From Amphiscolops sp. MND2022 (Eukaryota), in contig OZ076411.1 of NCBI GenBank assembly GCA_964187785.1, forward strand, positions 25,321,379 to 25,360,000: a stretch of 38,622 nucleotides of DNA. The letters run 5' to 3'. This document shows, in pieces, positions 4,338 through 35,415 of this stretch (position 1 is the first letter of the stretch; each line of letters starts with the position of its first letter). The translations under genes and the position numbers were made by a program. Under the pieces are notes generated by a model. The model saw only the letters and a program-made list of their open reading frames with translations. It ran no database searches and was not told where the DNA came from.

Positions 4338-9785
<5,448 letters not shown>

Positions 9786-11032: not shown

Positions 11033-11985
11033 CAGTACTCTGATTAAGAAATCGCCCCCCTATGCGCAGAGCGTCGTTATCAATCAATTAGAATTGCGTA
11101 TTTGCTCTCACTTTCAATTCTGATTGGCGCATCAAGTGAAATCTCCGGCGCAGAAAGAACACTTCTATTTTCCCAGTTTTGGGCAGGTTTTTGAAATATT
11201 TTTCTGAAACTTAAATTTATCGAATTTTGCAGTTTGTATTGAATTCAATGATATATTTGTTGTTTCAAAAACATTCTAAATGAAAAAATAAGTTTGTCGC
11301 CGCGAAACGTTCATTTCCTATCTTAATACATGTAAATCGAAGAAATTTTACCTTTCGAGCATGCTATTTCAAAAACGGTTGATAATTTTTGAAATCGAAA
11401 AATATCCATAGATTCAGTAGATTTGTGCGAGTTATTTGAGCATAAAACTTGCCAAAAAACATGTGGGTAACCCAGTCAAAAATTGGAAAAACGGAAAAAA
11501 GTCCCAAATTTGCTCAAAATTAGCTATATGTAACTTTCTCAATTTTTGTCCCAGAAAAATTGAAAAACACTAATATAAACTAGATAAAATTCTAAGAAAC
11601 TTTTATTTTTGATGTTTTTGCACATAACGAAGTCAATGTGAATTGCAGTCCAGCTAAGTAAGTCTTTTTTTCCACTATAGTCAACTTCATAATGAGCGCC
11701 TTTTAGAAAAAAAACCAAAACCCCAGAGAGATTCGAACCTGCAGCCTCCCGATTGCACGGCATAAGTGTTGACCACTGTGCCATAGGGACGTTATTGAAC
11801 AAAGTTGAACTATTGAATATATACGCATGCGATTAAAATAATATATATACGCATATTAAAATAATCGATGTCTTCGTCATGTGTTGCGAAGCACCGCTTC
11901 GCCTCTGTGTTCGAAATTCTCAACTGATTTCAAGCAAATCGAGCCTAAAATTGCCCCTGGGGACGTTTTCTTAATCACAGTACTG
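11033..11985. mobile_element. Non-autonomous Tc1/mariner-type element (MITE, 953 bp), copy 1
   Basis: TIRs CAGTACTCTGATTAAGAAATCGCCCC and GGGGACGTTTTCTTAATCACAGTACTG (about 24/27 match). TA on both sides (11031-11032, 11986-11987). No transposase ORF. Confidence 0.85.
11718..11790 (-). pseudogene. tRNA-like unit (tRNA pseudogene or SINE head; anticodon position reads TGC, Ala-like) inside the MITE
   Basis: GTCCCTATGGCACAGTGG...GGTTCGAATC...TGGGGTT has an A box (TGGCACAGTGG), a B box (GGTTCGAATC), canonical 72-nt spacing, a partial acceptor stem and a downstream T-run. D, anticodon and T stems are degenerate and U33 is replaced by G. Confidence 0.65.
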
Positions 11986-12001
11986 TATAGTTGAAAAATA
12001 C

Positions 12002-12262
12002 AAAGATCCTATTATTCTGTCTGTGGGTGAAAAAGATGAAATCTCAATCGCGGACGCTGTGCAATACATCTGCAAAGCTCTGGATTATCCATTCGACCAA
12101 TTAGAGTTTGACACGTCAATGGCGGATGGGCAGTTCAAGAAAACCGTATCCAATGAACGCCTTCTGAAATTTCTGCCTGACTTCAACTTCACCTCATTCG
12201 ATGTCGCAATCAAAGAAACATGCGATTGGTTCGTTGAAAATTTTGAATCGTGTAGAAAATGA
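12002..12262 (+). pseudogene. Duplicated 3' part of GFUS exon 4 (KDPIILSVG...CRK*)
   Basis: Identical to 9525-9785; lacks the first ~83 codons of the exon. Confidence 0.9.
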
Positions 12263-13509
12263 ATATCGGTAAGCTTGGGATACAACGGGTGCTCTTATTT
12301 TTGTGTGGTCTTGATGATGTATATGATCTTCCTCAAAATGCAATCAAGTTTTTGCTGATAATTTTTGGTTTTGGTTGATAAAATTGTAAATAACTTTTCC
12401 TTAATTGTATAGTATGTTGTTTCTTTGTTGATAATGATTACAATAGATTTATCCCCTTGTGGTTTGAAATTGGTGAAATTTTCATGTTTTGCAGTTTTTT
12501 GGGTCAGAAGTTCACCTTGGAATGGAAGAGAATTTTAGAAGATATTCAAGGAAGGCGACCTTCGAATACTGGTTTTTTCCTCATTGAACAAAAATTGTTT
12601 TATGGGTTTCGAGTCAGTCAATTGTATTAAAACCTTTGAATTCATGTTTTTTGAAACATTGAAATTGATGAAAAGAAAAATATAGGAACGAAACGCCATC
12701 AGTTTTCATAATCGTTCAATTCAAAGGGTTTGTTCCACAGAAATGTCTCGAATTGTCTTTTCGAAGTGTTTCAAAATGACGATGGAAGTAAAAATGACCG
12801 AAACGTCTTTCCTGTCGCAACGTCACTTAATAACGTCTTGATTTTTTCAAACATAGCTTACATTGACATCCGATGTGCTTTCGGACACAACCTTTCGTGC
12901 TCGGTAAATGCTTTTTTTTCGTACTCAAATTATCCAAATTGGTGAAAATGATATGTTCGAGAACAGTCAGTTCCAAACAAAAATAAAAGGACAGTTTATG
13001 CTCATTTAGCACTATTTGAAACCATATTGAAATTGAGAGACCCTATGGCAAAAAATAGAAAACCAATAGAGAAGACGCATAGTGCCGAAAAATTCAAAGG
13101 GTCCGTTATAGCTCAGAGGATACAGTAAAACTATGAAATACTCAATTCTTTTTGGCTTCGGGTACTCCGTAAATCTCAGGCGTAATGTCAAATAAATTCC
13201 ACTTCGATGTGAACTCTGTAGTCTGGAGAAAACAAACTAGTCACTGTATCAGACAGGCACTTTTCTTAAAAATTATCGTGACTAAAAATTGAGAATGTTT
13301 TGAAAATTGTGTTTGAAAATTATTTGAATGGGTTTTGTCCTGAAAACTCAAGGGTAAAACTTTCAAAAATTACTTCCTATGAACTTGAAAGGTTTGCAAG
13401 AAGTTATGCCTTGCTTTTGTTTCCGCAAGATCCAATATAATTAAAAACAATTCGAACAAAGGTAAATTATTCGTTACATGTTATAACAGATGACGGTAAT
13501 AGTTATGTA

Positions 13510-14462
13510 CAGTACTCTGATTAAGAAATCGCCCCCCTATGCGCAGAGCGTCGTTATCAATCAATTAGAATTGCGTATTTGCTCTCACTTTCAATTCTGA
13601 TTGGCGCATCAAGTGAAATCTCCGGCGCAGAAAGAACACTTCTATTTTCCCAGTTTTGGGCAGGTTTTTGAAATATTTTTCTGAAACTTAAATTTATCGA
13701 ATTTTGCAGTTTGTATTGAATTCAATGATATATTTGTTGTTTCAAAAACATTCTAAATGAAAAAATAAGTTTGTCGCCGCGAAACGTTCATTTCCTATCT
13801 TAATACATGTAAATCGAAGAAATTTTACCTTTCGAGCATGCTATTTCAAAAACGGTTGATAATTTTTGAAATCGAAAAATATCCATAGATTCAGTAGATT
13901 TGTGCGAGTTATTTGAGCATAAAACTTGCCAAAAAACATGTGGGTAACCCAGTCAAAAATTGGAAAAACGGAAAAAAGTCCCAAATTTGCTCAAAATTAG
14001 CTATATGTAACTTTCTCAATTTTTGTCCCAGAAAAATTGAAAAACACTAATATAAACTAGATAAAATTCTAAGAAACTTTTATTTTTGATGTTTTTGCAC
14101 ATAACGAAGTCAATGTGAATTGCAGTCCAGCTAAGTAAGTCTTTTTTTCCACTATAGTCAACTTCATAATGAGCGCCTTTTAGAAAAAAAACCAAAACCC
14201 CAGAGAGATTCGAACCTGCAGCCTCCCGATTGCACGGCATAAGTGTTGACCACTGTGCCATAGGGACGTTATTGAACAAAGTTGAACTATTGAATATATA
14301 CGCATGCGATTAAAATAATATATATACGCATATTAAAATAATCGATGTCTTCGTCATGTGTTGCGAAGCACCGCTTCGCCTCTGTGTTCGAAATTCTCAA
14401 CTGATTTCAAGCAAATCGAGCCTAAAATTGCCCCTGGGGACGTTTTCTTAATCACAGTACTG
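13510..14462. mobile_element. MITE copy 2 (part of the tandem duplication)
   Basis: Same sequence as 11033-11985 at +2477. Confidence 0.85.
14195..14267 (-). pseudogene. tRNA-like unit, copy 2
   Basis: Duplicate of 11718-11790. Confidence 0.65.
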
Positions 14463-17225
14463 TATAGTTGAAAAATACAAAAGTTTCAGACTCGAACTAC
14501 AGAGTCATCATAAAGCTAAACTCATGATTCCAAGTATTTCGCTGAATAGTCAAAAACTTACTCAGAAACCGTGCTACGAAACCAGTTTTGGTTTCCCTAG
14601 TTTCTTGAGTAGAATATTGTTTGTCTAGAACAAGAACTCCCTGATTACCTTGGTGGAAACTTTCGTGCTGTCGTGATTCTGCTTCGCTGATTCAAGTTTC
14701 GAAAAATGTCCATGCAAACTGATAAATTCAAGGTTATATTGCACCTGAATAAAAAAATTGAAACCTAAACAGTTTTTTTTTCGTTTTGAGTGGAGCGTCT
14801 TTCATTTCTACTCCCTCTTTCATCTGTTCCAAGAGCAATGACTTCAGCCACAGTAATATTCAGCGCAATGAGATCAATATTCTGAGATTATAAATTAAAT
14901 CTTTTTGTTCCAATTATAGTCGAACCCCAAATCAATGCATTTGTTACAATTTCTTAGAACACTGGGCAATTGAAGCAACTAGTTAGTAGCTTGATGTGCG
15001 CAATTCAGGAAATTTTTCCCAGAAAGGTTTTGACTAGCAAAATGTAGAAGTTCAATATCGAAGGTTCTTTATCTCAATTTTTCCGCGATGTGATGAGCAC
15101 GAAGTAAACTGTAAACGTTTTGCCTGAAACACTTTTCAACAGATCTGAAGATCATGTATCATACTCAAAATTTGATATGATACAGTAATTTCTAGTGCTG
15201 TCAAAAATGAAACGTCGAAAAACGTTTGAAAAAAACCACGTGAACTTGTTGGTGGCCCAGAAATCTGAGTCACGAGTTGATGTACCAATCAGAATGAAAA
15301 CGACATCAAAAGATTGCACGTCAAAAGAATCAGCGAAATACTACGCTGAAAAGAACGGAAACAACAAGAACACCGATAGCTACCAAATATTGGTCATTAA
15401 AACCCTACCTGCGAAACAAATGTCACAAATCAAAAAAGTCCAACTCGGCTAAAACTTGGGAAATTTTTTTCTCTTTCCAGAAATGTCTCATAGTGACGAA
15501 AAACCCAAAAGGAGGCCTCCAAGTTTGCAACACGTTCTTAAGTCAAAATCAGAATTTTAGCTTTTTTTCTAGTACCGCCGCTTCGTGGCAATTCCGCTCT
15601 TTGCGGGGGCTTTTAGTATCAACAACAGCAAATTGTTTCGTTTTGGAGCACAGCGTCTTGCAGTGTGGAAGAGTCTGGGGCGAAAGTAGTCAGAAGGCGA
15701 AAAAAAGTAGGGTACCTTAAAGTACCGCTTGGTTTTCCAGGGTCACGAAGTTGAACAAAACAAATCGAACAAACAAATTGCACAAAAACCTTTGAGACCT
15801 TGTTAGTCGGCACCTTATGAAGTGAAACGCGACTATTATAGTGACTTTTTTTTCAATTCACACCAACTGACCAAAATAGTTCTACAGAGTTCTACGAAAT
15901 TTTATGGTGACAATTGAACCATTTGGACTGGCGAACTGAACCAAAAAGGGTTTTCTGTTTTTCCGCGTAACATACAATACCGGGAGAGACTAAAGCGTCC
16001 CCTTTCAGTTTTTTTGGCATTGTGATACTTTGCTAAAAAATCCAAAAGGGTCCCCCCTTTTACCGCGCCGGCGCTAAATTCGGTTCAATTCTTGGGTTTT
16101 TCGGGTACTGTAAAAGAATACCTATCACTTTGAAGACCTTTAGCTATTTTTGAGCCTTATATATGGTTCCCGGGTTGTTTTCTTTCATTTCTTCTTTGTG
16201 GATCTTTCGAAAATTGGAGGGGTAAGTCAGATGATGATTTCTTACAATGATTCTATTATAGACTAATACTAATAAATAATGTTGTTTTGGAAAATGGGCC
16301 AGTGTCAACATTCAACTGGTTCGAGTCCGGAGTTTTTGTTTGCGGTAGATTTTACTTTTTAACTCTTTTTTCGACAGCATATAATTCCGAAAACTTTCTC
16401 CACATAGAAACTTACCGAAGACTCAAAGTTAATATTGATCAAGCTGCTGGAAAATTTTAAACGTTTCGCGCTGTGGAAAATGAATAATTCTGAGACGAGA
16501 TATTGCATGCAATTGTTTTTCAAACCGTGAGCTAATCAATTATTTTTTTGTTACACGGTATCGCGCGCAATATATTTTTTTTACAAAACTGAAGCTCTGC
16601 AGAAGAGAACACAGATGATTTTGTTGCAAAATGAAGAAGCAATCATTGGAAAAAGTTTCCGATGTTGAAAAACTTTTGCTCGTGTATGATTTTTTCTTGG
16701 TAGAAATTTTCGAAGAGTTGTAGTGTTGAAAAAATTGTGTCTATTGATTTTCCAATTCAATCAAATGAGGCGCATGTTTCCAGATTGCTCGCGAGATAGC
16801 AAATGAGGGACATATTCGGGTCAAGTTGGAATAGAGCTGCTTTTAGAAAAAACGTCTGTGACTACTCGTTTATGACAAAAGAGTGAATACTACGAATCTC
16901 TATGCAGGAACAATTTGGAAAACCTCCCTTAGTTAAAACAAATGCTGCTTGATCATCAATCTCATCATAGTTCAGTGTTGAGATGGGACCTTTCTTAAGT
17001 TTTAAAGCTAGGAATTCGTTCATGGTCAACTTGGATTTCAATGGCGATGACTCGGAGAGCAGGTTTGCTCCGTTTACTTCCTGATTGGAAGGTTTTGTGG
17101 ACAGTCTTGTAGCATAGTAGCTATTCAATGATTAAATTGTCGCGTCTGGTAAATGTCACAAATAGGTTAGTGATTTTTTTTCAGCATGTTTGCACACTCT
17201 TTGGTCTGTTTTACCAGATAATAAG

Positions 17226-17922
17226 ATTCCATATGTTCTCCTTAGATGAAAGAAATTTCCTTTACATAGATAATAGCCTTGTTATCCCGCAAGCTAAGTG
17301 AGCAATGATCATGTGTTCTTCACAATTCGGACACCCAGGCGGAGATGCCATGCTAGGTATGGTATTTGACATTTGATGGCCTAAGATTCACAGGGAGCTG
17401 ACGAGAAAGTGCGGACATACTTGCAAGCAGGTGAGAATTTGAAGTGTATGTTTAAACAGAAACAAACAGGAAAAATACCTGAAGTAACAGAGATGAATGG
17501 AGAGATAGCATAGAAATGAATTTTGCAGGACCGTTTTAGACATTCTCTCAACATTCAAACTTCATTGTTTTCAATTGAGATTCCATCAATTATCCTACAA
17601 CACTAAGAGATTGCTGGAATATCTAACTTGGTTTAGGAACGCTCCAGTGCAATGAAGGACTGCTGAGCCTTATTAGAGTTTTTGAGCAACTTCGAACAGT
17701 TTGTCAGTCCTGCTCAAGATCATTCATCAAAATATAATGAAAAAATGATTGTAAAGATGAATTCACGTCTTCATAAAGTCAAAACCATTTCATCAGAAAA
17801 CATGTGCTTTTGATACTGTTATACCGAACACTGGAGATCAAAAATGCAGGTTGAGGAACTCAGAGCAAAAAATTGATAGAAACATGTATGATAACATTTA
17901 AACATAAACAAATGTTCATCAT
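17226..17922 (+). repeat. Partial unit of a ~1.41-kb tandem array (decayed Gypsy integrase HHCC fragment), interrupted by the LTR element
   Basis: Similar to about 33330-34027 and 34745-35415. Translates in pieces as SLDERNFLYIDNSLVIP...FGHPGGDAML...WPKIHRE...QAGENLK...FAGPF. Confidence 0.85.
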
Positions 17923-19698
17923 TGTCATGCCAGCATGATGGAAATATAATCTACTAAATATCTGTAATGTAAATATTATGTCTTATGTACTTAGATATGG
18001 GCAATATGATGTCATATAATAAGATCCATGGTTGTGAGCAACCCTACGTTACTTGTACTTAACCCCCTATTTTCCCCAGTGAGATTTGAGCTATTTATTT
18101 AATTAATACTGAGCATTCTAGTTCAGTTTGTCCGCAATTAGTGATTGTGCTAATAAGCAAATGATGCTATTCTACATTTAATGGCTTGTCACGAGGAAAG
18201 AAAGTAGTTTCTCGGTCAAACTGGACCGCCATGACAAATAGACGAGATTGAACACTCGCTAGGGAATTCCCGCCTCAGAGGAAACTAGCGTGGCAAGCCT
18301 CCTCTCTTTGAAATACACGAAACGATGAAATAACGATGTTATTGGTGCTAGAACTCATAATTTGACTCAATCTAACAAATTTCATCCATATTACATCGCC
18401 TAACTGTGACCAGAACGCTAGAAAACGAGAGAATTGAAACACGATGTAAAAGCGATGAAACTACTTGATTGAGGGACTTGTTACCATATGTTTCATCATT
18501 TGTACATCGCTCACGCCTCCAAAACCTGAAAACGGTGCTAAAATAGCTAACGATGGATAAACGATGGAAATCTTTCATCGTTTTCTCATCTAGAGCTGAA
18601 TCACGCTTCCAAGACCTGAAAACAGTGCTAAAATCAGGAACGATGGAAAAACGATAGAAATCTTTCATTGTTTTCTCATCTATAATCAAAATTCACCAAT
18701 AACTATGGTAAAGCGATGTAACCACTCCTGAACGATGCACAGTGCTCTCCCCACCACTCATTTCATCGTTTTCACATCTAGTTGATCGTTTCAACACTAG
18801 AACAAAGCTCATTCATCATTCCTGCATCCACAGCCACATAAACAGAATCAACTAGTAGAAACGATGCCAAAACGACAAAACTACTGAATCCCGTATCTCC
18901 AGTTAAATTAGCGCTATTGATTCATCGTTTTTACATCATACTTGTTTAAAGTTGATTTAATCGACCCCCAGCTGGATTGTACCCCATTTTGATGTGATTT
19001 CGACACTTGCCGTGACTCAGACGATGCTTACTACAAGTTACTAATTTGAATGCATTAAATATTCATAATAATTGGTTTAAATAGATTCAGCGCGCAATTT
19101 CAGCTTGGTAGCCCTCCAGCGACATGCGATACAACCGGTCTAGTGACCAAGTGCTAATTAGCACCTTGCTAACTAACCAATAAGAACGAAACGATGGTAA
19201 GAATTGAGTCTTACCATCGAACTGGTGGAAGGCTACCGGAGAGACAACACAAGATTTACTAACGCTACATTGTACAAGTACTTATATTTACTTACCCTTT
19301 ATACGTACCTTACTCGAGCTTACAACAATTCAACTCTTATCCACAACAATCATCTCTTTCTCATCGTATGAGTTCTAATTCCCAAATAACCTTGAGAAAC
19401 GGGAAAACGTTAACTGGCACTACTTCAGTAGATTCAACAGAACTTACTCACGAGGAGCAAATCGTTAACATGGAAAATGACAACGAAAATGTAGATGATC
19501 AAACCCAATCAAGACAAAATTCATCAGGTCCAGAGATAGATTCACAGAGGGCAAATGATGAAAGATTTAGCCACCTACAATCAGAAATGTCTATGCTGAA
19601 AGCTATGATGGAAAAGTTGCTAGAACAAAACGAGGAGAGAAATAGACAAACGGATACCAATGCCGCAACGTCCTCGTTCGCGGTACGGTCGTCCAACA
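17923..19698 (+). repeat. 5' LTR (1,776 bp)
   Basis: Runs TGTCATGCC...GTCCAACA and aligns end to end with 30835-32609. Contains a ~90-bp internal tandem pair (18512-18592 / 18602-18682). Confidence 0.97.
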
Positions 19699-19711
19699 TG
19701 GTGACAGGAGT
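19699..19711 (+). other. Primer-binding site TGGTGACAGGAGT (probably tRNA-Leu)
   Basis: Begins with TGG immediately after the LTR's CA. From memory it matches the tRNA-Leu-type PBS TGGTGTCAGGAGT at 12/13. Confidence 0.75.
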
Positions 19712-20841
19712 CAACAGGACTCACAGAAACCAACGCAACTATTTCCACGACGAAGAAGATGAAGAAGATTACGAAGACACACCAAGCAACTCAACAGAGA
19801 CCGCATTACTCAACGCCATCCAAGATCTACCAAGGAAATGGCAGAAAACAAACACGAAACTCCTGCAAACCCACGTTCCCAATTTCCGAGGCTCTAAAGA
19901 CAAATACAACGAATTCGAGCACCTCTTACTTAACCATTTCCGACCCATCGCCAACAAGATCACAGAGGAAGATAAAATACACTTCTTCCAGAGCTTACTC
20001 CGCGATGAAGCCATTGACTTTTGGCAATCCATCACCATCAACCCAACCACCACTCTACAGGACATCCTGCAACTATTCAGAAAAGAGTTCGCAAAAGAAG
20101 ATATGAGAGAAGTCGCCCGCTACAAATGGAATGAAGCCAAATACGACCCGACCACCCAGACATTCGGAGATTTTCTAAAAAACCTCAAGAAAATAGCCAA
20201 GCAAGCATACGGCGACGAGGCTGACCAATGCATCAAGATGTTCCTCTTCGGGAAAATACCAAGCGAAATCCAACAAGAGCTGACAATGGCGAACAAGGAA
20301 GACAGCAGCCCCGAAGAAATCAAAACCTACCTACTCAGAAAATACCAATATCAGAACGTCCTACAACAACCTGCAGCGACATATCAGCCATTTAACCAAA
20401 TGTCTGATAACAACCCCAAACGAGAATTCACACGCTCCGACCAATCTCAGCCCAAACCAGACATCAAACGGTTCGATGGATAATGCTTCTACTGTGGTAA
20501 ACAAGGCCACAGGAAACAAGAATGCAGAGGACGCCAAAGAGATGAAGCTAATGGCATTAACAAACCAGACGCCATACAACCTACCAAACGGCAAGATGAA
20601 GATAAGCCAAAATACAACCCAAAACTGGTATGCCAGATTTGCGGTATACTGGCCACTCAGCCAAGGACTGCAGAAAAAGAATCCCAAAGCAAACGAGCAC
20701 ACCCTACGGACAACTACCATATCAACGAACAGATGAACAAGAGAACAAAGAACGACGACGAGAATTAAAACAACAACAGCGCCCCATGAACCAAATGGAA
20801 ATACAAGACAACGACGAAGATCCATCCTCAGAAGGAGAACA

Positions 20842-20848
20842 GGATTTT
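20842..20848 (+). other. Candidate -1 ribosomal frameshift heptamer G_GAT_TTT (gag to pol)
   Basis: In phase with gag, one codon before the gag stop. The -1 frame is open from here into the protease ORF (ATG 21031). Confidence 0.65.
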
Positions 20849-20853
20849 CAGTA

Positions 20854-23800
20854 AAGCCACAATTTCACTCCGCGAACAATCGAAGTGCGCACCCACACTC
20901 TGACTCCAAAACTCACTCGACTCAACAAACTCAACGCAATCGTCACCAGAGGTCTTGGCAGCCCTCTGGTGATTCCAGCAAAGCAGACGAAGTCTATCTG
21001 CGAAGAAACCAGAAAACCGATGAACAACCGATGAAGTCAATGCGGACTACCAACAAATTCACCCCATTGGAAAATTCACTCGATGAGCAAACGATGAACT
21101 GGCATAACGACGCATTGAGGCCTGCGCACGATGCCAAAGAGATGTACTCACATCTACAACCGACGGACCGACTCTCAACCGATGACAAATCGACAAAACG
21201 GCTTAGTAGCAAAACAATTGCAAACGACAAAAATAGTAGTACCAAAACTAAAAAACATGCAACCAATAATCAATTTCACGTACTTAGTCCCACATTACAT
21301 TTAAATAAAAAGGATAAGATGTTGTTTGTTCCCCTCCAGTTTAACAGCTACGAAAACCAAGGTCTTTTAGACACAGGAGCAGTGCAAAGCGCACTTTCGG
21401 AAGCAGAATTACGCAAAATCACTGCTGCTCATCCCGAAGCAGTACTAGACGAATTACCACCCCCTAACTTCAAAGTTCAGATAGCTAACGGAAGCTTGGT
21501 CCCCATTCGAAAACAAGTCCTTCTACGCTTTTTCATAGCTGGAAAAGTATTTGAAGAAGTCTTTTTAGTCCTCCCAACAATGGGAACAATCCTGATTGGA
21601 ATGTCGTTCTTTGAAAAATATTCGGTCAACCTTGACATCAAAAATCATTTAATCCACTTTCCAAACCACATGATGTCAATGCAAGTGAGACAACAGACGA
21701 ATAAAAAGTTCAAAACTGGATTAATTAATTTGTATTCCAGCAGCCGAACCACCATCCCTCCCCACCATCAAGTACTGATTGAGGTCCACAGTGACGAGGA
21801 CATATCACGTACAACCGGTACGGTAGAAGGGACTCCAGCATTCATGCGCAAGACGTGTCTCTTGGTGTCTCCAGCAGTGGTTGAACTAGACGATGGCAAA
21901 ACGATGATTCAGGTCACCAACCCCAATGAGCACGTGTACACACTCGAAACCAACACCAACCTAGCAAACTTTATAATACCAACGCCCCACCAAGTTGCCA
22001 ACATCACACCGATGCCAGTCGAACACCTGAAGTTGATCACCGATCACCCCGACGATGCAGCAGCAGTGATCAATCAACTCTTTGTGAACACCGAGATGAA
22101 GTCTACAAAATGGTACCCGACACCAGAGACGTGTAGTGAGCCAGACAAACTCAACAAGATCGAACGACGCATTTTCGATGAGATTCTGGCCCTCAGAGAA
22201 CTGGAGAAGCTCGACCCTACCCACTCCCATGAAGAACGAGTCAAGTTCCTGCAGAACTTCAAGTGGGAGGAATCACTTCTCTCTCCATCTCAACAAGCTC
22301 AGGTAGAGGAGTTGCTGGTAAAGTACAACTCCATTTTTGCTAGACATCGTTTAGACATCGGCATGAACACTGATTTTAAAGTAAAATTAACACCCCAGCA
22401 TGAAGAACCGGTGTACTCCCAAAGTCTCCCTACCCCTACTAACCTAAAAGATGACTTGCTTGTAGAATTAGCGTTAATGCAGGAGTACGGGATTATAACT
22501 ATTCTTCCTTACAGCAAATACTCTTCACCGATATTTGCTCAGCGCAAACCGAATGGTAAACTAAGGATTTTAGTTGACTTGCGGAGAATCAACCACCTGA
22601 TCAAGAACGATTACGGCGAACACAACCACCCAGTCACAACCGTTTGAGACGCTGCTCAACACATGGCCGGGAAAAAATATTTCTGTAAACTTGACTGTTC
22701 CCAGGCCTACCATTGCATTCCAATGGCTGATGAGCAGTCAATCCAACTTTTGTCTTTCAACTTTGGATCCCGCACCTTTGCTTTTCTTAGACTAGCTCAA
22801 GGTCTTAACCGTTCTCTTTCAGCCTTCACCAGCGTAGTCCGCGAGTACTTGGACCCCTTGGTCAAAGCGGACCGCTGTGCCCAGTATGTTGACGACATAG
22901 GCATAGCAGCAGATACGCCTGATGAATTGATTGAAAATTTAGAACTTGTTTTTCAGCAGTTGACCAAAGCTGGTTTAAAACTCAGCATGAATAAATGTGA
23001 TTTCGGCCAACAACAAATTGAATACTTTGGAAAATCAATTTCTAGCACTGGAATAGAACCCATCGAAAAACGAATAACTGATTATTTGAAGAAACTCAAA
23101 CCGTCCAATTCAGTCAAAGCTCTCCAACGGTACTTAGGATTTGTCAACTTTTACAGGTCCTACATTCCCCGGTTGGCAGACAAAACAGCCGTTCTCCACG
23201 AGTTAATCAAAAAAGACACTACCTTTAAATGAGAACAACGTCACAAAGATGTAATTTTTGACATTAACGAAAGTTTACTCAAGGCTACTAAACTGTCATT
23301 GAAACTTCCCCTTCCGGATAAACAATTAGTAATCATGTGTGACGCGAGTGAACACGCAGCAGGTTATGTTCTTTTAATAGAAGACTACTCTGAAACACAA
23401 TCGGGTAGCTTGAAGAAGTACGCACCAGTTGCTTTTGGCTCTAAGAAATTTCAGGGTGGACAGATGTCATTAACAATGTACGCTAAAGAATTTTTAGCCA
23501 TGCACTTCGCGTTCGACGAGTTCGGTCACATTTTGTGGGGTGCAAAGAAACCTATAATTGTAATGACAGACAGTAAAGCACTCACCCGTTTCTTTCAGGC
23601 CAAACACATACCACCGTCACTTTGGAATTTTTGCGACCAGACGCTTCAGTTTAATTTTATTTTAGCAGATGTACCAGGTGTAGAGAATCCCGCAGCGGAT
23701 TACCTTTCCAGGTTGGAAATTCGACCTGAAGACCGTGTTCATCTAAAATTAACTGATTCCATTCCAGTACACCACATAGAAATTGAAATCGCCTCGAAGA

Positions 23801-26000
23801 CGCCAAAACAGGAGGAAGACGAACCAGACTACTTCCCTCCTAGCGAAACACTGAGACAGAAGAGGTCACACGATGCTAAACCGATGAAAGTGATCAACTC
23901 TGAGACAGTGACGACTGATGATGGCAAACTGATGATTTCAGTTGACGCAGCGACGGCAGACGGTGACGATGACAAGACGATGAACTACGTACATTCCACA
24001 CCACTGGCCTCTGAGAATGATCACACAAGCTCCCCTCAGATCTACCAGCTAATGCCTGACGCTCACCTACCAGAGTACACTAGATTCATCGTAAAAACAT
24101 CGTTACTACACCCGGTAACGAAAGAGGTTAGCCCCCAAGGGGGAGTCGATCTAATTTTAACCCAAAAAACAGATAGTGACATTCAACTTATGTTAAAAAT
24201 TTTGTCTGGCGAAACAACTCTAACCCACTCTGTGAACTTGATGTCAACGTTTTTCCAAAAACTCCACAAAAACCGTAAACGCCTTGAAAAAGTAAACGGA
24301 GCTCTGTACCGTATCTTTTATGACCATACTGGCCTTGAGTCCCATAAACAAATCGTCGTACCTGATCAAGTCATGCTAGAAATAATCAGGTCCTTACACA
24401 GTAACCCTGTACAGGGACACCCCGGCTCTAAAGAGATGTTACATGAACTACGCAAACGCTACTTCTCTCCAAGTCTTGCTGAAAAAACACAAAAAATACT
24501 CGAAAGCTGTGAAAATGCATGCGATCGAAATCGACGAACGAATCAAAGGTCCGTCCACCGTTACAGAAAATTTACGACCCGTGTAACGGCCCTTCTGATC
24601 TGATGGAAGTTGACATAGTCGGACCACTGCCTGCATCAAACGGATTCACACATATCCTGACCGCAATCGACGTATTCGCGCGTTATTTGTTTGCTGTACC
24701 GCTACGAAAACCCGATACACCATCCGTAGTTAAGGCTTTACTGTCGGTATTCGCCAAACACGCGTACGTCCCAACGCATATCCTGACTGACAAAGGATCC
24801 GTGTTCACCGCCGAACTATTCCAACAACTGACCAAAGCCATAGGCATTGAAATCTCCCATGCAACTGTAAAACATGCACAAACCATAGGCATGGTTGAGA
24901 GAAGTCATGCAAAACTTAAAAAGATCCTAAAAATACATGTAAATGTAGACAGACCACAATGGGACCGCTATGTCGACATAGCAAGCATGGCCCATAACAC
25001 AACGTACCACACTTCTCTGAAATGCTCACCAACTGAAATCTTTCACGGACGCACTCGATACAACGCTTTGGACCTAAAATACTCTAACCCCGAAAGACGA
25101 GTCGACACCAAGTTTGGAGACGTCAACCAGATCCTAAACCTTATGAACGAAATCTACCGAAATAACACAGACAACATAGTAGCTGCATACCACAAGTACA
25201 AAGCTTATTATGACAGAAAAGCCAAAGCACAACCGCTCAAAGTGAACGACCTTGTTTTCCTACTTGACCCCAAATACGACTCTCAGGGTTGCAAAGAAGA
25301 GTTCAAGACCTTCCACTGGAAAGGTCCGTTCAAAGTGATGAAAGTGCTGTCCGACAGTAATTACATCATACGAAAGGTAAGAACGTTCAAAACACAATGC
25401 GTTCATCGTATACGACTGAAAATCTTCAAACCGGAATTCCCTGTAGAAGACGTAGAAATCAGCAACCAACCAGTATACGCTGACACGGACCGAACGGAAG
25501 ATTCTGATATTTTCGATTCCCACATTCCCACACAAACAAACATAAACTCCAACTCGGACGAACCAGAAACTGATGAAGAAACACTAGTTGAAAGAGTCAT
25601 TCGAATCAAATCACCAGATTATCGACAGCCAATCAAACACGACAGACCACTGAACCGACTACCGAACCGACTGTCGTTAACACCACAACCGGAAATAATC
25701 ATAGACGACCTGCCTCTAAACGCCCCACAGGTGCAATTAAACGAAAATGATGATATAAGTCCACAGGAAATCATTCCAGATACAGCGAAACAAACAGAAC
25801 CATCAACAAAACCTGCCAACACCGAGACACCCCGACAGGTGAACAATGACGAAACGCCAAATCTGATAGCAACGAGGACAAATAAAAACAAATATAGTCT
25901 ACGCGAAAACCCTCAGCCGAAACGCTACTCAGACTTCCTAATTCATGAAATCTCAACTGCTCGAAACGCTCTACGCAAAACAAACACTACTTTACAGTAG
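20854..26000 (+). pseudogene. pol: pol: protease, RT, RNase H, integrase; two in-frame stops (22645-22647, 23230-23232) and one frameshift (~24515)
   Basis: PR LLDTGAVQS. RT YSSPIF, LRILVDLRRIN, QYVDDI. RH CDASEH, KEFLA, TDSKAL, ADYLSRL. INT HSNPVQGHPG...C/C, EVDIVGPL, LTDKGSVF, GMVERSH. The ORFs at 21031, 22663 and 23299 share one frame. Confidence 0.95.
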
Positions 26001-26092
26001 AAAACGACAGAAAAACATGTAAACGACAATCTCACATCAAAACGATGGTTAAATAACACCCCATCGTGAAGAAAAAGTGAAATTACCAGAAA

Positions 26093-27333
26093 CGATGTAA
26101 ATCCGATGGAACATTTCCATCGGCAGCACATCGCTTCCAGAAACACATAAAATTCAAATGAGTTTAACGATGGTTCACATCCATCGTTTTCTCATCCCAA
26201 CCTTCTCTCTGACCATGCCACAAAAACAATCTGAGTTTCCATGACCTGTCTGTTGATTATCCGTAGGCTTTGCCTCGTGTCATCTGATGAACGACCCTCA
26301 GTTGATGAAAAATTTAATTACCAACTGCTAGATGGAAATTAGACAAACTACCGCATTTGACTACAAACTTATAACAGCACGATGTAAAAGAGATGGAATT
26401 TCTCCATCCCTTCTACACCTCCCTTCTCTCTACAATTACATTCAGTCAAGAGAGAATAATCATCAATCGTCAACAGACCATAGGCCTTGCCTTGGGTTGA
26501 CATTCGGTTCATTACCGCCCTGATTGAGGACACCGAAAAGATACAACTGCTATTCATTGGCTAACGCACCCACAGACACACGCCGATGAAAAAACGATGG
26601 AAATCTTCCATCGTTAGTTCATCGCTTCCACTCCCCAACGCAAAATTAACTAGTTATCAGGCGACGATGGAAAACGATGAAAATGTTTCATCGTTATCGC
26701 ATCGTCTCACAGTTCGTCGAGCAACCTTAACAAGCTCATCGACACGATGATAAAACGATGGAAAACCTCCATCGTTTCACACAACTCTTGAAGAACGCAC
26801 GAAAACCAACCCTGATGGAAAACCGATGAAAATCTTCCATCGGGTAATCATCGCTTTTAGAATTTCCACCTCAAATGAACCAACTCTTAGCCAACGATGA
26901 TGGAATGATGGATATACTCCACCGTTCCACTCACCTTTTATATCTCAACGCCAAAACCCACTTAAGCCTCTGTATCGATGCCTACACGATGAAAATACTT
27001 CATCGCGTGCACATCGCTTTGAAAGGTTAACATGAAACTCAGACTATTCATGCAATTCAAAGGTACATGTAATTTCACGCACGCGAGTACAACAACAGTC
27101 ACGATGTATAACAGATGGAGTTTCCCCATCACTTAATCACTGGTAACAACCTAACATGAAAACTACCTAAGTCTCGTAACCTACACTTCGAATACATGCA
27201 ACTGAGCCCCGCGATGGGAAAACGATGAGAATGTTTTATCGTTTACTCATCATCCAAAGGATTCATACTAATTTACACACAAACGCAATTACAGATGAAG
27301 TAACGATGGAAATTTTCCACCGCCCTCTCATCT
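26093..27333. repeat. Array of about 12 copies of a 41-bp motif CGATG-N6-CGATG-N9-CATCG-N6-CATCG
   Basis: Exact copies at 26093, 26584 and 26976. Near or partial copies at 26168, 26380, 26665, 26745, 26813, 26895, 27102, 27212 and 27293. Confidence 0.9.
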
Positions 27334-27564: not shown

Positions 27565-30500
27565 TCAAAATCGATGCTCTCCGCCAATTTCCGGACTCGC
27601 AGGCCTTCCTCCATCCGACGTGAAACCTAACAGCTCCAAAACTGCACCACGATAACCATCAGGAGACTCTCTGCCGATTTCATCCCACAAACTGCCTAGC
27701 GTGACGTCTCGCAAATCTTCCGATCTTCCAATCACTTCGCTACTTTCCATCACTAAGCCATCGGGGATACTCTGTAAACCCCGCACATTTCGGGCCTCAC
27801 ACCAACTGAGGATTGTCAGGAAAATACTTCTAAGGGACTCTGAAGATAAAACTGGCAAGCAAATATTGACCATCTGAACATTTTGGATTACACTGCCGCT
27901 CAAACACAACGACAACTGCATCATTCGCCGCAAATTAGCATCGTTAGTTCCATACTGCAACAGCTCCCTATCATGGACATCTGATGCATACTCACTCGGT
28001 TGGTCATCTCGGAATTGTCTGACGAAGCGTACATAAGATTCAGACATCGCAATTCTTTCTTCTCCAGCTATAACACTATTTCCCTCTAGAGCTTCAAGAA
28101 AGTAGCCAATTGTTTCCTCTATTTCATTGATACTTCCGCACATCAGCACAACCGGACACCAACATGCTAGGGCCATATTGACTTGATCAGAAATCTGTGG
28201 CATCCGTAGCAAGTTCATAGCAACGGTGATCAGGAACTGCCGCTCGATACTCCCCCCCACAAGCATATCGGGCACGATGAGCTTCGAAAGTCCGATACAA
28301 CTGTGACTCTCTCGCTGCACTTAACCGTAGATCTCCGATTTGAAAATTGGCCCAGCGGTGCAACTCAAATGATTCCGGAACTGTCGCAGGTTGAGCAACC
28401 ATCAAGCAAAGTTCTCGGACGGTACTCAGCAACTCATTGACAGCATACAATCCGCGATGCATACTTCCACCGAAAGTCTGCTTCATGTTCTTGAGTACTA
28501 AAACAACAGGATTAAAACACAACACGCCAATGACCAGATGCTAATCCGATGTACACTGTATAACAACGCCCTCACCTAGTACAGACCTAACAAATCACTC
28601 GAAATAGTAGTTCCACGCCACATGACATTTTTCCGATGATAACTATAGACAGTTCTCCCAACCCTCATACAACGCGACGGAAAACCGACAAAACCTGTAT
28701 AAACGTAATTACATGTAACAAAAGCAAAAATCTAACCAATGGAGTATACCGCTCCCATAGCATGCAATTTCAAAGCTAGTCCTGATTCCTGCAAGATTAT
28801 TAATTCCATCCGATTGGGATCTGCACTTCCTCCTAACTGATCAAGACGCTGTACCAACGCCAGAATACTGTCCCACGACTGATGTAACTCCTCCAGGACA
28901 GAGACAATCTCCCAATTAGAGATTTCACCGGTTACGACACACTGAAATAAAACACATTACTTACACACCTCACGTCAAATTCCAAGATGACCACTACGTG
29001 TTCTTAACTCCAAAACTCTTGCCGAACTGAAACCAAATATATGAACACACTAACATGCAACAAGGCAGGACAACTGCGTAACACAGGATCAGTCAAACAG
29101 TCGCGAAGCTTCCCCAGAAGAAAGTTCATCACCACATGAACGTCCTGCCCGACGAACACAGACAATCCAGCGGTTGTAATAATCTGCAATACGGCATGCA
29201 ATTGTAACGGATTCAGCTGCAACCCGCGTCGGCCGCCGTCTCCTTCTAACAACCCTCCAACAGATGAGAGACATCCACAACTGATCCCCAATGGGACAAA
29301 GTCATCAACCACACAACTCCAGTAGTCCGCGAGCCACTCAGACACTCGCCTCTCCCAGTCGCCAGTAGCTACGACCTCAAACAGGACCACACCCTGCACT
29401 GCGTCTGCCTCAGCCACACTGACAGAGCAACGAACGACACTCCTATCCAACTCCAGATATAGTCCAACAGGATTTTCACCACATAGCGAAGCTGCGAGTG
29501 TACGGACGACATAAGGCCACACTCCGAAGATCAAAAGCGCCTGGAAAAAGTTAAAAAAAAATATTCCAAAACACCAATCAGCCTCACGACAATAGCACAC
29601 AAAACTCCCCTCAGAACCTAGATCATTTACCCGTCTATAGACACAGCATGAAGGTTATTAGGAAATTCCAAACATGTAATAACATGTATACATGTAAGTC
29701 ATGAAACATATAATTACCACTACGTCTTCCTTTCGGCATCCACCACCGAAAAGACTTCTGTACGACACGTCCGTCGTCGACAAGGAATCCCACAAATTGG
29801 TGAGTCCCGTCACGTCACCACCTCGATAAAGCGCGTCCACGACGACACACAGGAACATCCTCAGACTGCGTTCTGTATCAGGCACTTCCTGCACGGTCGA
29901 ACTCCAGATACTGCCGCCTCCTGACTCAATCCGGAACACATCCGGCACTGACAAGGCAGGACACACTTCCACGTCAGGCACTGACAGCCCACGTAACTCT
30001 TCAACCATTCGCGCCGCTTCTAACACGCCCATCACGGCACCAGTAGGACGTCTTAGCAACATTCCACGTCGCAGACGCACCAGACAGTCTAACCTGTGAT
30101 GGATCACGCCGCGACAATGTTCCAGATAGGTCGAAATCCCGCGACTGCCACCTTCAAATCGCGACGACACAAGAGACATCGCACATAAGCATCAGATGAG
30201 CGATGCTCACGAGCGAAGCCAAGCGAGATTCCGGCATACGGGTGTTGAAACCAAGTCGCGCGAATGCTGTTTAAAGCGACTAAAACGAAATCCGATGGAT
30301 AAACGATGAAACTACTTAACTGCAAATAGAACTGAATGGAATTCATTCATAATAACCCCCCTGATGTAAAAACGAAGTTTTAGTTAAATTAGCTAAGAGA
30401 AAACTTCTACCGACTGAAAAAAAAATCAAAACTACTGAAAAGAAAGTATCGAGAAAACGATATCAAATCACACTTGAAAATAAAAATACCCACGCCCACT

Positions 30501-30834
30501 ACGTATTCCGAAAAAGCACATAACTTGCAAGACAGTGAATCACGTGATCGATGAAGTTGTTTAGTTTACCTGCCCGAACTGACTGCCTGACAACAACTGG
30601 ACCAGGTTGTGCAGATGAACTGACGATGGAAGTACCAGCCTCACCCACAACGGCAACATTTCCAGATGACTCGGCAACGTCTTCATCATCAAGGATCATC
30701 GCATCTGCCTTCGCCGCTCATCCTCAGGGACTGCCTCAATGTCCTCTGACTCCCTGGAAGGCGACTCCACCACGAACTCACGACGCGTCTGTGTTGCTAC
30801 ATCACGTGACGACTCCGACGCTTCCGGTCCACAG
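27565..30834 (-). pseudogene. Antisense multi-exon accessory gene: acidic N-terminal region, C2H2 (BED/TTF-like) finger, putative inactive hAT-transposase-like fold; frameshifted and 5'-truncated by the 3' LTR
   Basis: Consecutive minus-strand ORFs with in-phase GT-AG introns: 30569-30280, 29717-29541 (phase 0, KEDVV|ALLIF) and 28736-28695. C-x2-C-x16-H-x5-H at about 30178-30099, split by a frameshift near 30146. The hAT assignment is by-eye inference. Confidence 0.7.
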
Positions 30835-32609
30835 TGTCATGCCAGCATGATGGAAATTCAATCTACTAAATATCTGTAATGTAAATATTATGTCTTATAT
30901 ACTTAGATATGGGCAATACGATGTCATATAATAAGATCCATGGTTGTGAGCAACCCTACGTTACTTGTACTTAACCCCCTATTTTCCCCAGTGAGATTTG
31001 AGCTATTTATTTAATTAATACTGAGCATTCTAGTTCCGTTTGTCCGCAATTAGTGATTGTGCTAATAAGCAAATGATGCTATTCTACGTTTAATGGCTTG
31101 TCACGAGGAAAGAAAGTAGTTTCTCGGTCAAACTGGACCGCAATGACAAATAGACGAGATTGAACACTCGCTAGGGAATTCCCGCCTCCGAGGAAACTAG
31201 CGTGGCAAGTCTCATCTCTTTGAAATACACGAAACGATAAAATAACGATGTTATTGGTGCTAGAACTGATAATTTGACCCAATCTAACAAATTTCATCCA
31301 TGTTACATCGCCTAACTGTGACCAGAACGCTAGAAAACGAGAGAATTGAAACACGATGTAAAAGCGATGAAACTATTTGATTGAGTGCTTGTTACCATAT
31401 GTTTCATCATTTGTACATCGCTCACGCCTCCAAAACCTGAAAACGGTGCTAAAATAGCTAACGATGGATAAACGATGGAAATCTTTGATCGTTTTCTCAT
31501 CTAGAGCTGAATCACGCTTCCCAGACCTGAAAACAGTGCTAAAATCAGGAACGATGGAAAAACGATGGAAATCTTTCATCGTTTTCTCATCTATAATCAA
31601 AATTCACCAATAACGATGGTAAAGCGATGTAACCACTCCTGAACGATGCACAGTGCTCTCCCCACCACTCATTTCATCGTTTTCACATCTAGTTGATCGT
31701 TATAACACTAGAACAAAGCTCATTCATCATTCCTGCATCCACAGCCACATAAACAGAATCAACTAGTAGAAACGATGCCAAAACGACAAAACTACTGAAT
31801 CCCGTATCTCCAGTTAAATTAGCGCTATTGATTCATCGTTTTTACATCATACTTGTTTAAAGTTGATTTAATCGACCCCCAGCTGGATTGTACCCCATTT
31901 TGATGTGATTTCGACACTTGCCGTGACTCAGACGATCCTTACTACAAGTTACTAATTTGAATGCATTAAATATTCATAGTAATTGGTTTAAATAGATTCA
32001 GCGCGCAATTTCAGCTTGGTAGCCCTCCAGCGACATGCGATACAACCGGTCTAGTGACCAAGTGCTAATTAGCACCTTGCTAACTAACCAATAAGAACGA
32101 AACGATGGTAAGAATTGAGTCTTACCATCGAACTGGTGGAAGGCTACCGGAGAGACAACACAAGATTTACTAACGCTACATTGTACAAGTACTTATATTT
32201 ACTTACCCTTTATACGTACCTTACTCGAGCTTACAACAATTCAACTCTTATCCACAACAATCATCTCTTTCTCATCGTATGAGTTCTAATTCCCAAATAA
32301 CCTTGAGAAACGGGAAAACGTTAACTGGCACTACTTCAGTAGATTCAACAGAACTTACTCACGAGGAGCAAATCGTTAACATGGAAAATGACAACGAAAA
32401 TGTATATGATCAAACCCAATCAAGACAAAATTCATCAGGTCCAGAGATAGATTCACAGAGGGCAAATGATGAAAGATTTAGCCACCTACAATCAGAAATG
32501 TCTATGCTGAAAGCTATGATGGAAAAGTTGCTAGAACAAAACGAGGAGAGAAATAGACAAACGGATACCAATGCCGCAACGTCCTCGTTCGCGGTACGGT
32601 CGTCCAACA
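30835..32609 (+). repeat. 3' LTR (1,775 bp)
   Basis: Same termini as the 5' LTR, followed directly by the TSD ATCAT. Confidence 0.97.
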
Positions 32610-32623
32610 ATCATATCCCATAA
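32279..32623 (+). CDS. LTR-encoded Gag N-terminus (110 codons) in the 3' LTR, running 4 codons into flanking DNA
   Basis: Identical to gag residues 1-110 except D43Y. Ends at TAA 32621-32623 in host sequence. Confidence 0.6.
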   Translation: MSSNSQITLRNGKTLTGTTSVDSTELTHEEQIVNMENDNENVYDQTQSRQNSSGPEIDSQRANDERFSHLQSEMSMLKAMMEKLLEQNEERNRQTDTNAATSSFAVRSSNNHIP

Positions 32624-35415
32624 AAAAACTTTCTGTCAGCACTGAGACTTTTTCGAGAGGAATCTATCTGAAAATTTTTTTCTCTTTTTGTTTTGTTAAG
32701 TGAGATAGGCGTTTGATAGTGATATATCCGCTTCTATATATCTAAGCAAATATAGTGAGATCATAGACAAAAACATTATTTAATTTGTGATAACCTCTCT
32801 ATGGATAACTTGTCCTGTGGTATTGAAATTTGGGTGCAAGCAACTTTGTTGAAACAGTTCAAACTGAGCAGCAAACTGATAAAATTATTGTAGCACTCAA
32901 AGCTACTTGAAAAGCCAACACAGAACAAAAAATCCACAATTTGCATAACAAACTATCCAAATTGATGCGGAGTTTTCACGGGAAAACTACAGGTTGATGT
33001 GGAAGCTGCCGGTTTTGTTTGAATGATGTTTTAAATGGCAGCGCGAAAGCAAGTGAAAGAATCAAGGCGGCAGAAATGATTGATGAGAATAGGAGCGTCA
33101 ATCGAGTGAACGAAGCAAAAAAGAAGCGACCAGCCAGATCGCTAGAACAACGAAATCAGACGAAACCAAACAGGATTAGTCTTAATAGCACCAAATTGAA
33201 AGTGAAATGAGTCAGAGGCTCTCAATTCCCGTAATAAATTACGCGGCAAATACTATCATCCGAAAAATCATCATTTTAGTGAAAAATATAACAGAACCAC
33301 GAAAAGCCGGTTTTCTATTTGAAAAATTCCATGTTATCCTTAGATGAAAGAAATTTACTTTACATAGATAATCGCCTTGTTATCCCGCAAACTAAGTGAG
33401 TAATGATCATGTGTTTGCAATTCTGACACCCATGCGGGGTTGCCATGCTAAGTATGGTATTTGACATTTGGTGGCATAAGATTCATCAGGAGCTGACACA
33501 TCCGACGAGAATGTGCGGACAATGCTTTCAAGCAGGTGAGAATTTGAAATGTATTTTTAAACAGAAACAAACAAGAAAATTACGGAAAGAATAGAGATGA
33601 ATGAGGTGTTAGCATAGAAATAAATTTTTCAGGACCGGTTCAGACATTCTTTCAACATTCAATCTGCATTGTTTTCAACTGAGATTCCATCAGTTATACT
33701 ACAACACTAAGAGATTGCTGGAATATCTAACTTGGTTTAGGAACGCTCTAGTGAAATGAAAGACTTCTGAGCCTTATTACAGTTTTTGAGCAACTTCAAA
33801 CAGTTCGTCAGTCCTGCTCGAGAACATTCATCAAAATATAATGAAAAAATGATTGTAAAGATGAATTCACGTCTTCATAAAGTCAAAACCATTTCCATCA
33901 GAAAACATGTGCTTTTGATGCTGTTATACCGAACACTGGAGATCAGAAATGCAGGTTGAGGAACTCAGAGCAAAAAATTGATAGAAACATGTATGATAAC
34001 ATTTAAACATAAACAAATGTTCATCATATCCCATAAAAAAGCTTTCTGTCAGCACTGAGACTTTTTCGAGAGGAATCTATTTGAAAACTTTTTTCTCTTT
34101 TTTTTTGTTAAGTGAGATAGGCGTTTGATAGTGATATATCCGCTTCTATATATCTAAGCAAATATAGTGAGATCATAGACAAAAACATTATTTAATTTGT
34201 GATAACCTCTCTATGGATAACTTGTCCTGTGGTATTGAAATTTGGGTGCAAGCAACTTTGTTGAAACAGTTCAAACTGAGCAGCAAACTGATAAAATTAT
34301 TGTAGCACTCAAAGCTACTTGAGAAGCCAACACAGAACAAAAAATCCATAATTTGCATAACAAACAATCCAAATTGATGCGGAGTTTTCACGGGAAAACT
34401 ACAGGTTGATGTGAAAGCTGCCGGTTATGTTTAAATGATGTTTTAAATGGCAGCGCGAAAGCAAGTGAAAGAATCAAGGTGGCAGAATTGATTGATGAGA
34501 ATAGGAGCGTCAATCGAATGAACGAAGCGAAAAAGAAGGGACCAACCAGATCGCTAGAACAACGAAATCAAACGAAACCAAACAGGATTAGTCTTAATAG
34601 CACCAAATTGAAAGTGAAATGAGTCAGAGGCTCTCAATTCCCGTAATAAATTACGCGGCAAATACGATCATCCAAAAAATCATCATTTTAGTGAAAAAAT
34701 ATAACAAAATCACGAAAAGCCGGTTTTCCATTTGAAAAATTCCATGTTATCCTTAGCTGAAAGAAATTTACTTTACATAGATAATCGCCTTGTTATCCCG
34801 CAAACTAAGTGAGTAACGATCATGTGTTTGCAATTCTGACACCCAGGCGGTGTTGTCATGCTAAGTATGGTATTTGACATTTGGTGGCATAAGATTCACC
34901 AGGAGCTGACACATTCGACGAGAATGTGCGGACAATGCTTTCAAGCAGGTGAGAATTTGAAATGTATTTTTAAACAGAAACAAACAAGAAATTTACCGAA
35001 AGAACAGAGATGAATGAAGAGTTAGCATAGAAATAAATTTTGCAGGACCGTTTCAGACTTTCTTTCAACATTCAAACTTCATTGTTTTCAACTGAGATTC
35101 CATCAGTTATACTACAACACTGAGAGATTGCTGGAATATCTAACTTGGTTTAGGAACGCTCCAGTGAAATGAAGGACTGCTGAGCCTTATTACCGTTTTT
35201 GAGCAACTTCAAACAACTCGTCAGTCCTGCTCAAGAACATTTATCAAAAAAAGTGAGAAAATGGTTGTAAAGATGAATTCACGTCTTCATAAAGTCAAAA
35301 CCATTTCCATCAGAAAACATGTGCTTTTGATGCTGTTATACCGAACACTGGAGATCAGAAATGCAGGTTGAGGAACTCAGAGCAAAAAATTGATAGAAAC
35401 ATGTATGATAACATT
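32610..35415 (+). repeat. Two units of a ~1,413-bp tandem repeat (32610-34022 and 34023-35415), derived partly from decayed Gypsy RNase H/integrase sequence
   Basis: atcatatcccataaaa recurs at 32610 and 34023. The units are highly similar but not identical. Remnants HK(K)A-LSALR and YIDNRLVIP...WWHKIHQE...QAGENLK. Confidence 0.9.

Follow-up and report, generated by a model that had tools for sequence, protein, structure and literature searches.

How an intron-rich gene comes to lie on the antisense strand of a long terminal repeat (LTR) retrotransposon, and what it does for the element that carries it, is the question raised by a 38,622-nt stretch of the Amphiscolops sp. MND2022 genome (GCA_964187785.1, OZ076411.1, positions 25,321,379-25,360,000, forward strand; hereafter the window). 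Here a Ty3/Gypsy element harbors minus-strand open reading frames (ORFs) between its integrase (stop at 26000) and its 3' LTR (30832-32609), a location correctly given by an initial annotation that read them as a spliced accessory gene resembling a catalytically dead hAT transposase. Plants and fungi are known to have additional antisense ORFs in the interval from pol to the 3' LTR; a 2020 review calls their origin unknown and reports no similarity to other transposable elements that would support a nested-transposon origin (PMC7264820). For the accessory family described below, an ancestor is probable, a DNA target can be proposed, and variants exist naturally that differ in both finger and target, so that the question becomes testable by a swap experiment.

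The antisense gene is conserved in sister copies of the element, where it comprises eight coding exons and about 930 aa (the sum of the exons) and opens with a start codon followed by upstream exons of about 40, 132, 96, and 330 nt. The window copy lacks ~1,560 bp of sister sequence at the edge of the 3' LTR, a region that in the sisters holds the start codon, three exons, and the beginning of the fourth; the gene thus extends beyond position 30834, where it had been taken to begin. What remains in the window reads as follows, in the direction of the gene:

30570-30831, minus strand: remnant of accessory exon 4, acidic and Ser/Val-rich, with the upstream exons and start codon deleted
30280-30569, minus strand: phase-1 intron with CGATG sites inside
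29718-30279, minus strand: exon Z, the finger exon
29541-29717, minus strand: phase-0 intron at a position common to the distant lineage
29055-29540, minus strand: exon C, 162 aa, predicted to form a helix, three strands, helix, coil, helix, strand, and helices, with no conserved Asp
28942-29054, minus strand: phase-0 intron, overlooked in the initial annotation
28737-28941, minus strand: exon D, 68 aa, with an invariant Trp not preceded by Arg
28498-28736, minus strand: phase-1 intron, GT..AG, 239 nt
27565-28497, minus strand: exon E (last), 315 aa in sisters, frame broken near 28245 in the window; the predicted sister model matches Hermes 368-609

To follow these exons across the family, 40 loci were retrieved from genome searches, their choice resting partly on long open frames, and splice sites were scored in loci where motif anchors located the exon. 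GT or AG is present in 34/34 scored sisters at the Z donor, C acceptor, C donor, and D acceptor alike, in 33/34 at the D donor, and in 33/33 at the E acceptor, while the Z acceptor carries AG in 24 of 26 loci, lineage 1b, where the acceptor is located elsewhere, being omitted. Intron lengths vary freely (109-219, 106-149, and 117-260 nt), and 18 of the 27 fully scored loci have an intact frame in each of the four core exons, a count to be read with the partial choice for long ORFs in mind. Two of the introns originally listed, 30569-30280 and 29717-29541, are indeed in phase and conserved in sisters; 29054-28942 had been missed, and the proposed 42-nt intron 28736-28695 has its true acceptor at 28498, as position 28695 shows AG in 18/34 sisters and leads into a frame that reaches a stop after ~40 codons. 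The annotated C-x2-C-x16-H-x5-H finger is found in 17/17 aligned exons from both lineages 1 and 2, its four ligands invariant; the window copy has it split by a frameshift near 30146, which, like the second one near 28245, had been anticipated. At one sister locus (L058, ~1430-3070 as oriented) the finger exon is duplicated internally and fused into the next exon.

The gene belongs to a sizeable family. A genome search with the last exon, in which 150 of 1,277 candidates were scored, gave 151 matches whose identities range from 100% to 26%, and one with a divergent member gave 128 matches more or less overlapping the first set; altogether, hundreds of accessory-gene copies fall into three lineages, with identities of 26-95% and near 20% for the distant lineage. 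Of 13 pairs compared, 7 have a measurable dS and give dN/dS of 0.13-0.31, not near 1, the remaining six being saturated; other frames give 0.77-2.97, save the reverse frame that shares third positions (0.20-0.46). We conclude that the accessory gene is almost certainly functional. A profile search of 1.84 billion representatives returned 95 matches, the weakest of which constitute the distant group (E 5.5e-9 to 6e-4). No named protein appeared in the 10 clusters looked up among them, and one representative cluster (P0090), searched in the genome, gave a 99% match; no longer relatives of P0090 were found, a search for longer relatives via the finger profile yielded one match, itself a family member, and the metagenome and viral contigs searched contained no relatives.

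In the genome, the distant group (lineage 2) likewise lies antisense and downstream of a Gypsy integrase (10/13 loci), its exons are collinear with C (hhalign E 1.7e-5) and D (hhalign E 1e-4), and it shares both the phase-0 intron before C and the finger. Trees of exon C, reverse transcriptase (RT), and integrase (10-11 elements) recover the same three groups, 1a, 1b, and 2, with the lineage 2 split fully supported in all three and 1b strongly supported in the exon C tree only; the gene has been retained across lineages with 57% RT identity. Within 1a, three elements (L047, L053, L060) show 53-65% identity in the gene versus 90-91% in integrase and 91-96% in RT, and differences at four-fold sites in four 1a comparisons amount to 0.49-0.64 in the gene and 0.07-0.28 in pol. 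From this much larger divergence we infer that old gene modules may ride on a more recently shared gag-pol backbone, which would imply recombination between subfamilies. The lineages also differ at their C termini: the lineage 2 last exon (L151, L154, L156, L159, L191-L196) encodes a Ser/Lys-rich basic tail of ~100-130 aa that is absent from lineage 1, whose proteins end in a conserved SPE(I/V) motif. An extra ORF of 250-280 codons, in pol orientation, further lies between the accessory gene and the 3' LTR of lineage 2 elements (L151:2862-3617, L154:2484-3248, L156:2701-3537, L159:2474-3310), with no Pfam match above cut-off in the three tested.

As to what the gene encodes, a comparison of predicted structure ranked the Hermes transposase first of 48,161 chains, with an aligned length about twice that of the next rows, Hermes being the hypothesis stated beforehand for that ranking. 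Also compatible with a hAT transposase are the finger, the order of the strands, the invariant Trp, the succession of exons, and the overall length. The interpretation given at the outset is partly supported, with Hermes as the top structural match and no counterpart in sequence profiles or in Foldseek at E <= 0.001. Neither Pfam, run on five minus-strand ORFs of the window and on the alignment members, nor PDB sequence searches gave anything significant for the accessory protein; Foldseek returned no match at E <= 0.001 in the PDB for either model or in BFVD for exon E, and Hermes was absent both from a Foldseek-ranked second look for exon E and from a wide search for exon C. zf-BED reached E 0.07 in 1 of 17 finger exons, the match to the genome's own BED fingers was weak, and profile comparison (HMM, hhalign) with the genome's own hATs, mostly Ac-like by our reading, recovered the finger only. 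Searches with PF14291 and PF25431, directed at affinity to the ZNF862/Blackjack-type hAT subgroup, matched nothing anywhere, controls included, and the ESM Atlas gave no usable match for the lineage 2 read-through ORF; RdRp-like rows obtained there for exon E were weak, below the level of recognition, and were rejected. An env role was likewise discarded, in agreement with the initial annotation, the gene being antisense and the best hydropathy windows reaching 1.04-2.12 in four exons of three copies, a screen that covered exons other than the N-terminal ones.

The protein had been described as catalytically dead, and no conserved D, D, and E indeed occupy the positions expected, as mapped by secondary structure with no residue alignment behind the mapping: Asp does not exceed 31% where strand 1 ends or 40% in the turn after it, is present in no more than 1/45 at the strand-4 position, and no acidic column exceeds 31% in exon E 206-222. 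A CxxH motif is absent at core 106-118, and the proposed RW motif lacks its arginine, the Trp being invariant in 15/15 but preceded by Asn or Leu. The gene moreover resides in LTR elements with a 5-bp duplication, unlike hAT elements with their terminal inverted repeats and 8-bp duplication. These four departures (DDE, CxxH, RW, and element type) place the protein outside the active hAT transposases; it is probably descended from them and may, by analogy, work like the plant regulators TnpA or VANC. Compared with Hermes (PDB 8edg, 8sjd; PMC10368747), the accessory protein appears to have its parts in the same order, with a BED-like finger at the N terminus, then a core rich in strands, a helical insertion, and a C-terminal portion, and both systems have short repeated DNA sites with A-rich flanks inside the encoding element. 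Cooperative binding to short subterminal repeats next to an AT-rich flank is described for the BED domains of Hermes (PMC10368747). It differs in the absent conserved DDE, CxxH, and RW arginine, in the finger (C-x2-C-x16-H-x5-H versus CCHC in Hermes), and in its gene, which has seven introns and lies in an LTR retrotransposon, the likeness being one of structure alone. We regard descent from a hAT transposase as likely. That the gene is functional but its product instead joins a zinc finger to a degenerate body, RNase H-like and helical, drawn from another DDE superfamily or from a host gene, with the Hermes match reflecting a common helical arrangement, seems unlikely to us given the rank and aligned length of Hermes and the agreement of finger, strands, Trp, exon order, and length.

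If the protein binds DNA, the element itself offers candidate sites. A repeat finder showed dispersed palindromic repeats in it, which are CGATG sites in a fixed arrangement, a forward pair followed by a reverse pair with successive distances of 11, 14, and 11 bp, the densest array being:

26043-27308, no strand assigned: CGATG-N6-CGATG-N9-CATCG-N6-CATCG units, many of them ~70-80 bp from the next, in the gap that separates the integrase stop from the stop of the accessory gene; candidate binding sites

A three-site pattern has 17 matches in the window, all within the element, and none in 100 shuffles; genome-wide it has 1,479 matches versus 5 with one extra base (12-bp spacing) and 0 for a reversed control. 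By our count, 68 of the first 100 genome-wide matches listed lie within ~16 kb of an accessory match, and the other 32 could represent solo LTRs. The density of ACGATG per kb is 12.8 between integrase and gene, ~8 in the LTRs, 1.9 in gag-pol, and at most 0.2 in the flanks, and CGATG sites are also found in introns of the accessory gene. Family-specific short motifs have accumulated in the non-coding parts of the element, as expected of a VANC- or TnpA-like self-specific regulator. Direct CATCG pairs at 11 bp number 127 in nine 1a elements versus a mean of 0.41 at other distances; eight 1b loci carry 11-bp direct pairs of GATGA (42) and CATCG (21) without inverted partners; and in nine lineage 2 loci it is GACGT that forms 11-bp pairs (15 versus 0.27), counts that are not independent, since the copies are related. 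GACGT pairs are absent from 1a and 1b, lineage 2 has one CGATG pair, and 34 control stretches have neither. The 11-bp spacing is kept while the core changes, and the finger helix segment changes along the same lineage split. That the element-encoded protein binds the arrays is, in our estimate, somewhat more likely than not. Short AACCGA-type repeats, some 11 bp apart and probably subterminal, also occur near the ends of the genome's hAT loci (L109, L110, L112, L115, L119, L132).

We propose that a Gypsy ancestor took up a hAT transposase gene in antisense orientation between integrase and the 3' LTR, where its introns would survive reverse transcription because the gene is antisense to the sense genomic RNA, as follows from known LTR replication. 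The protein would have lost DDE chemistry while keeping the BED-like finger, a helical segment that is the dimer domain in hATs, and the scaffold; made from its own spliced antisense transcript, it could form a dimer or a larger oligomer and bind the 5-bp sites that its element carries at intervals of one helical turn in LTRs, introns, and behind integrase. By analogy with TnpA and VANC, it may regulate its own family of elements specifically, the likeliest effects being to promote their transcription or to counter their silencing by chromatin. Two correlations are observed, namely the parallel divergence of finger and target motif between lineages and the old gene modules on a more uniform gag-pol backbone. 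A dead hAT-derived, self-specific DNA-binding regulator is the best explanation at hand, although we hold it evenly poised between right and wrong; the fuller scenario, in which a retrotransposon clade turned a complete DNA transposase into its private regulator-operator system, with a dead hAT oligomer reading lineage-specific operators one helical turn apart and old regulator modules exchanged between elements that have gag-pol in common, is put forward tentatively. If true, a class II gene would have passed to class I elements and given rise to a system for anti-silencing or activation, in a genome that is not a plant's and has no evident DNA methylation. The CpG observed/expected ratio is 0.96-1.16 in the element and left flank, and the CpG/non-CpG transition ratio is 0.84-1.2 in 6 of 8 comparisons and 1.6 and 2.4 in the other two; because CpG is neither depleted nor clearly hypermutable, a demethylation mechanism is without support.

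The same dead hAT derivative could bind the arrays on the cDNA or pre-integration complex rather than regulate transcription, bridging LTRs, protecting from autointegration, or aiding nuclear entry or integration steering. Retention of the whole scaffold beyond the finger, arrays in both LTRs as well as inside the element, and the synapsis of DNA ends by hAT transposases via BED binding (PMC10368747) would suit such a function, and yet the densest array is internal, sites also occur in introns, and the rapid evolution of the gene relative to integrase is easier to reconcile with a conflict over host silencing than with a partner in core replication; we consider this alternative rather improbable. 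Doubtful, too, is a functional hAT-origin gene whose product does another job, for instance suppressing small-RNA defence, while the arrays are bound by a host factor or form RNA hairpins for packaging or dimerisation. The 11/14/11 units are palindromic, their outer spacers pair slightly above shuffled (3.66 versus 3.21 of 6), the co-variation rests on three lineages, and GACGTC resembles a host CRE site. Among 65 distinct four-site units, however, only 1 has fully paired spacers, a result more in keeping with protein sites than with hairpins; the 1b direct pairs have no CGATG-to-CATCG partner within 45 bp, so that there is no hairpin in that lineage; and a spacing held constant while the core changes is what a protein specific to the element would lead one to expect. 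That a DNA transposon inserted there is decaying and passively carried along, as the broken and truncated window copy might suggest, is already refuted by the selection data unless these are wrong, with splice-site conservation, open core exons, and retention across lineages against it as well.

The self-specific regulator that we favor has partial precedents. Grande gene23, RIRE2, and Retand TRP28 are antisense genes between pol and the 3' LTR (PMC7264820; PMC11963269), present in most copies, conserved, suspected of nuclear or DNA-binding regulation, and accompanied by repeats in the region, all traits shared here; the word 'intron' is nowhere in the available text on Retand (PMC11963269), whereas the accessory gene has many. 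By our reading of the sequence, the present family differs from plant antisense ORFs in its probable class II ancestor, its candidate target sites, and its non-plant genome. Transposase-derived family-specific regulators are known in plant DNA transposons (10.64898/2026.08.24.746577; PMC5735166): Spm TnpA, reported to derive from a transposase, and VANDAL VANC, whose target motifs form repeats differing between related elements (PMC5735166), are element-encoded DNA-binding regulators like the protein proposed here. Both are encoded by plant DNA transposons, the terms 'retrotransposon', 'LTR', and 'gypsy' being absent from the available TnpA text, and VANC removes DNA methylation (PMC5735166), of which the present genome shows no mutational trace. 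HTLV-1 HBZ, too, is a regulatory gene in antisense orientation, situated close to the 3' LTR of its retroelement (PMC11963269), and animal LTR elements capture other enzymes (PMC5408684, PMC6431247), among them the non-env DEDDy and GDSL ORFs downstream of pol in bdelloid elements, found by profile methods; these are other protein families, and 'intron' and 'transposase' do not occur in the available text (PMC5408684). In the open literature, with subscription journals, Repbase, and supplements outside coverage, we found no report of an LTR element with an antisense intron-rich hAT-derived gene and matching arrays. HBZ itself, the product of a spliced transcript, is a small bZIP protein that does not derive from a transposase. 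Host-domesticated hATs such as the ZBED family, ZNF862, and DAYSLEEPER are kept as non-mobilising DNA-binding proteins, but as single-copy host genes, whereas here the keeper is a mobile element with hundreds of copies. If the proposal is true, it would extend the transposase-to-regulator route of plant DNA transposons to a beneficiary that is another mobile element, and provide new sequence-specific DNA-binding modules with known natural operators.

The host element is assigned to Ty3/Gypsy by plus-strand Pfam matches to RVT_1, RT_RNaseH, Integrase_H2C2, and rve, a protease match in pol lying below cut-off; the protease-RT-RNase H-integrase order, paired TG..CA LTRs, target duplication, and primer-binding site are those of this group. 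Its parts are:

17915-17919 (left copy) and 32610-32614 (right copy), no strand: target-site duplication ATCAT
17920-19698, plus strand: 5' LTR, 1779 bp, TG..CA, with CGATG arrays (18323-19366) and the first ~110 gag codons inside
19368-20483, plus strand: gag-like ORF, beginning inside the LTR and labeled by position, with no significant Pfam match
19699-19711, plus strand: putative primer-binding site, first letters TGG, within the gag reading frame
20737-26000, plus strand: pol with protease, RT, RNase H, and integrase, split over four ORFs in the window copy
30832-32609, plus strand: 3' LTR, TG..CA, 98.4% identical to the 5' LTR, with CGATG arrays at 31462-31592

We take 19699-19711 to be the primer-binding site on general grounds. 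The gag frame (19368-19711) continues through it, and the gag N-terminus is repeated in the 3' LTR because gag begins inside the LTR. The window copy is defective in pol and in the accessory frame and lacks the whole region before the 3' LTR, yet its LTRs are matched and flanked by the duplication. The deletion includes the polypurine-tract region, where four sisters (L031, L041, L047, L053) have a C-rich run on the sense strand ending in CCGGG(T/A)G beside the 3' LTR start and no clear polypurine tract. The element sits within a degenerate repeat with a 1,413-bp tandem period (17223-17922 and 32610-35415).

Elsewhere in the window, a short minus-strand ORF at 5258-5509 without a Pfam match resembles a Tc1/mariner transposase fragment, and a MULE transposase domain (E 1.5e-10) is encoded by a 457-codon ORF at 1953-3326. 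The interval 8533-9785 holds exons of an NAD-dependent epimerase (Pfam Epimerase), which we take to be GDP-fucose synthase-like, and an exact 2,480-bp tandem duplication at 9525-14481 repeats part of its last exon.
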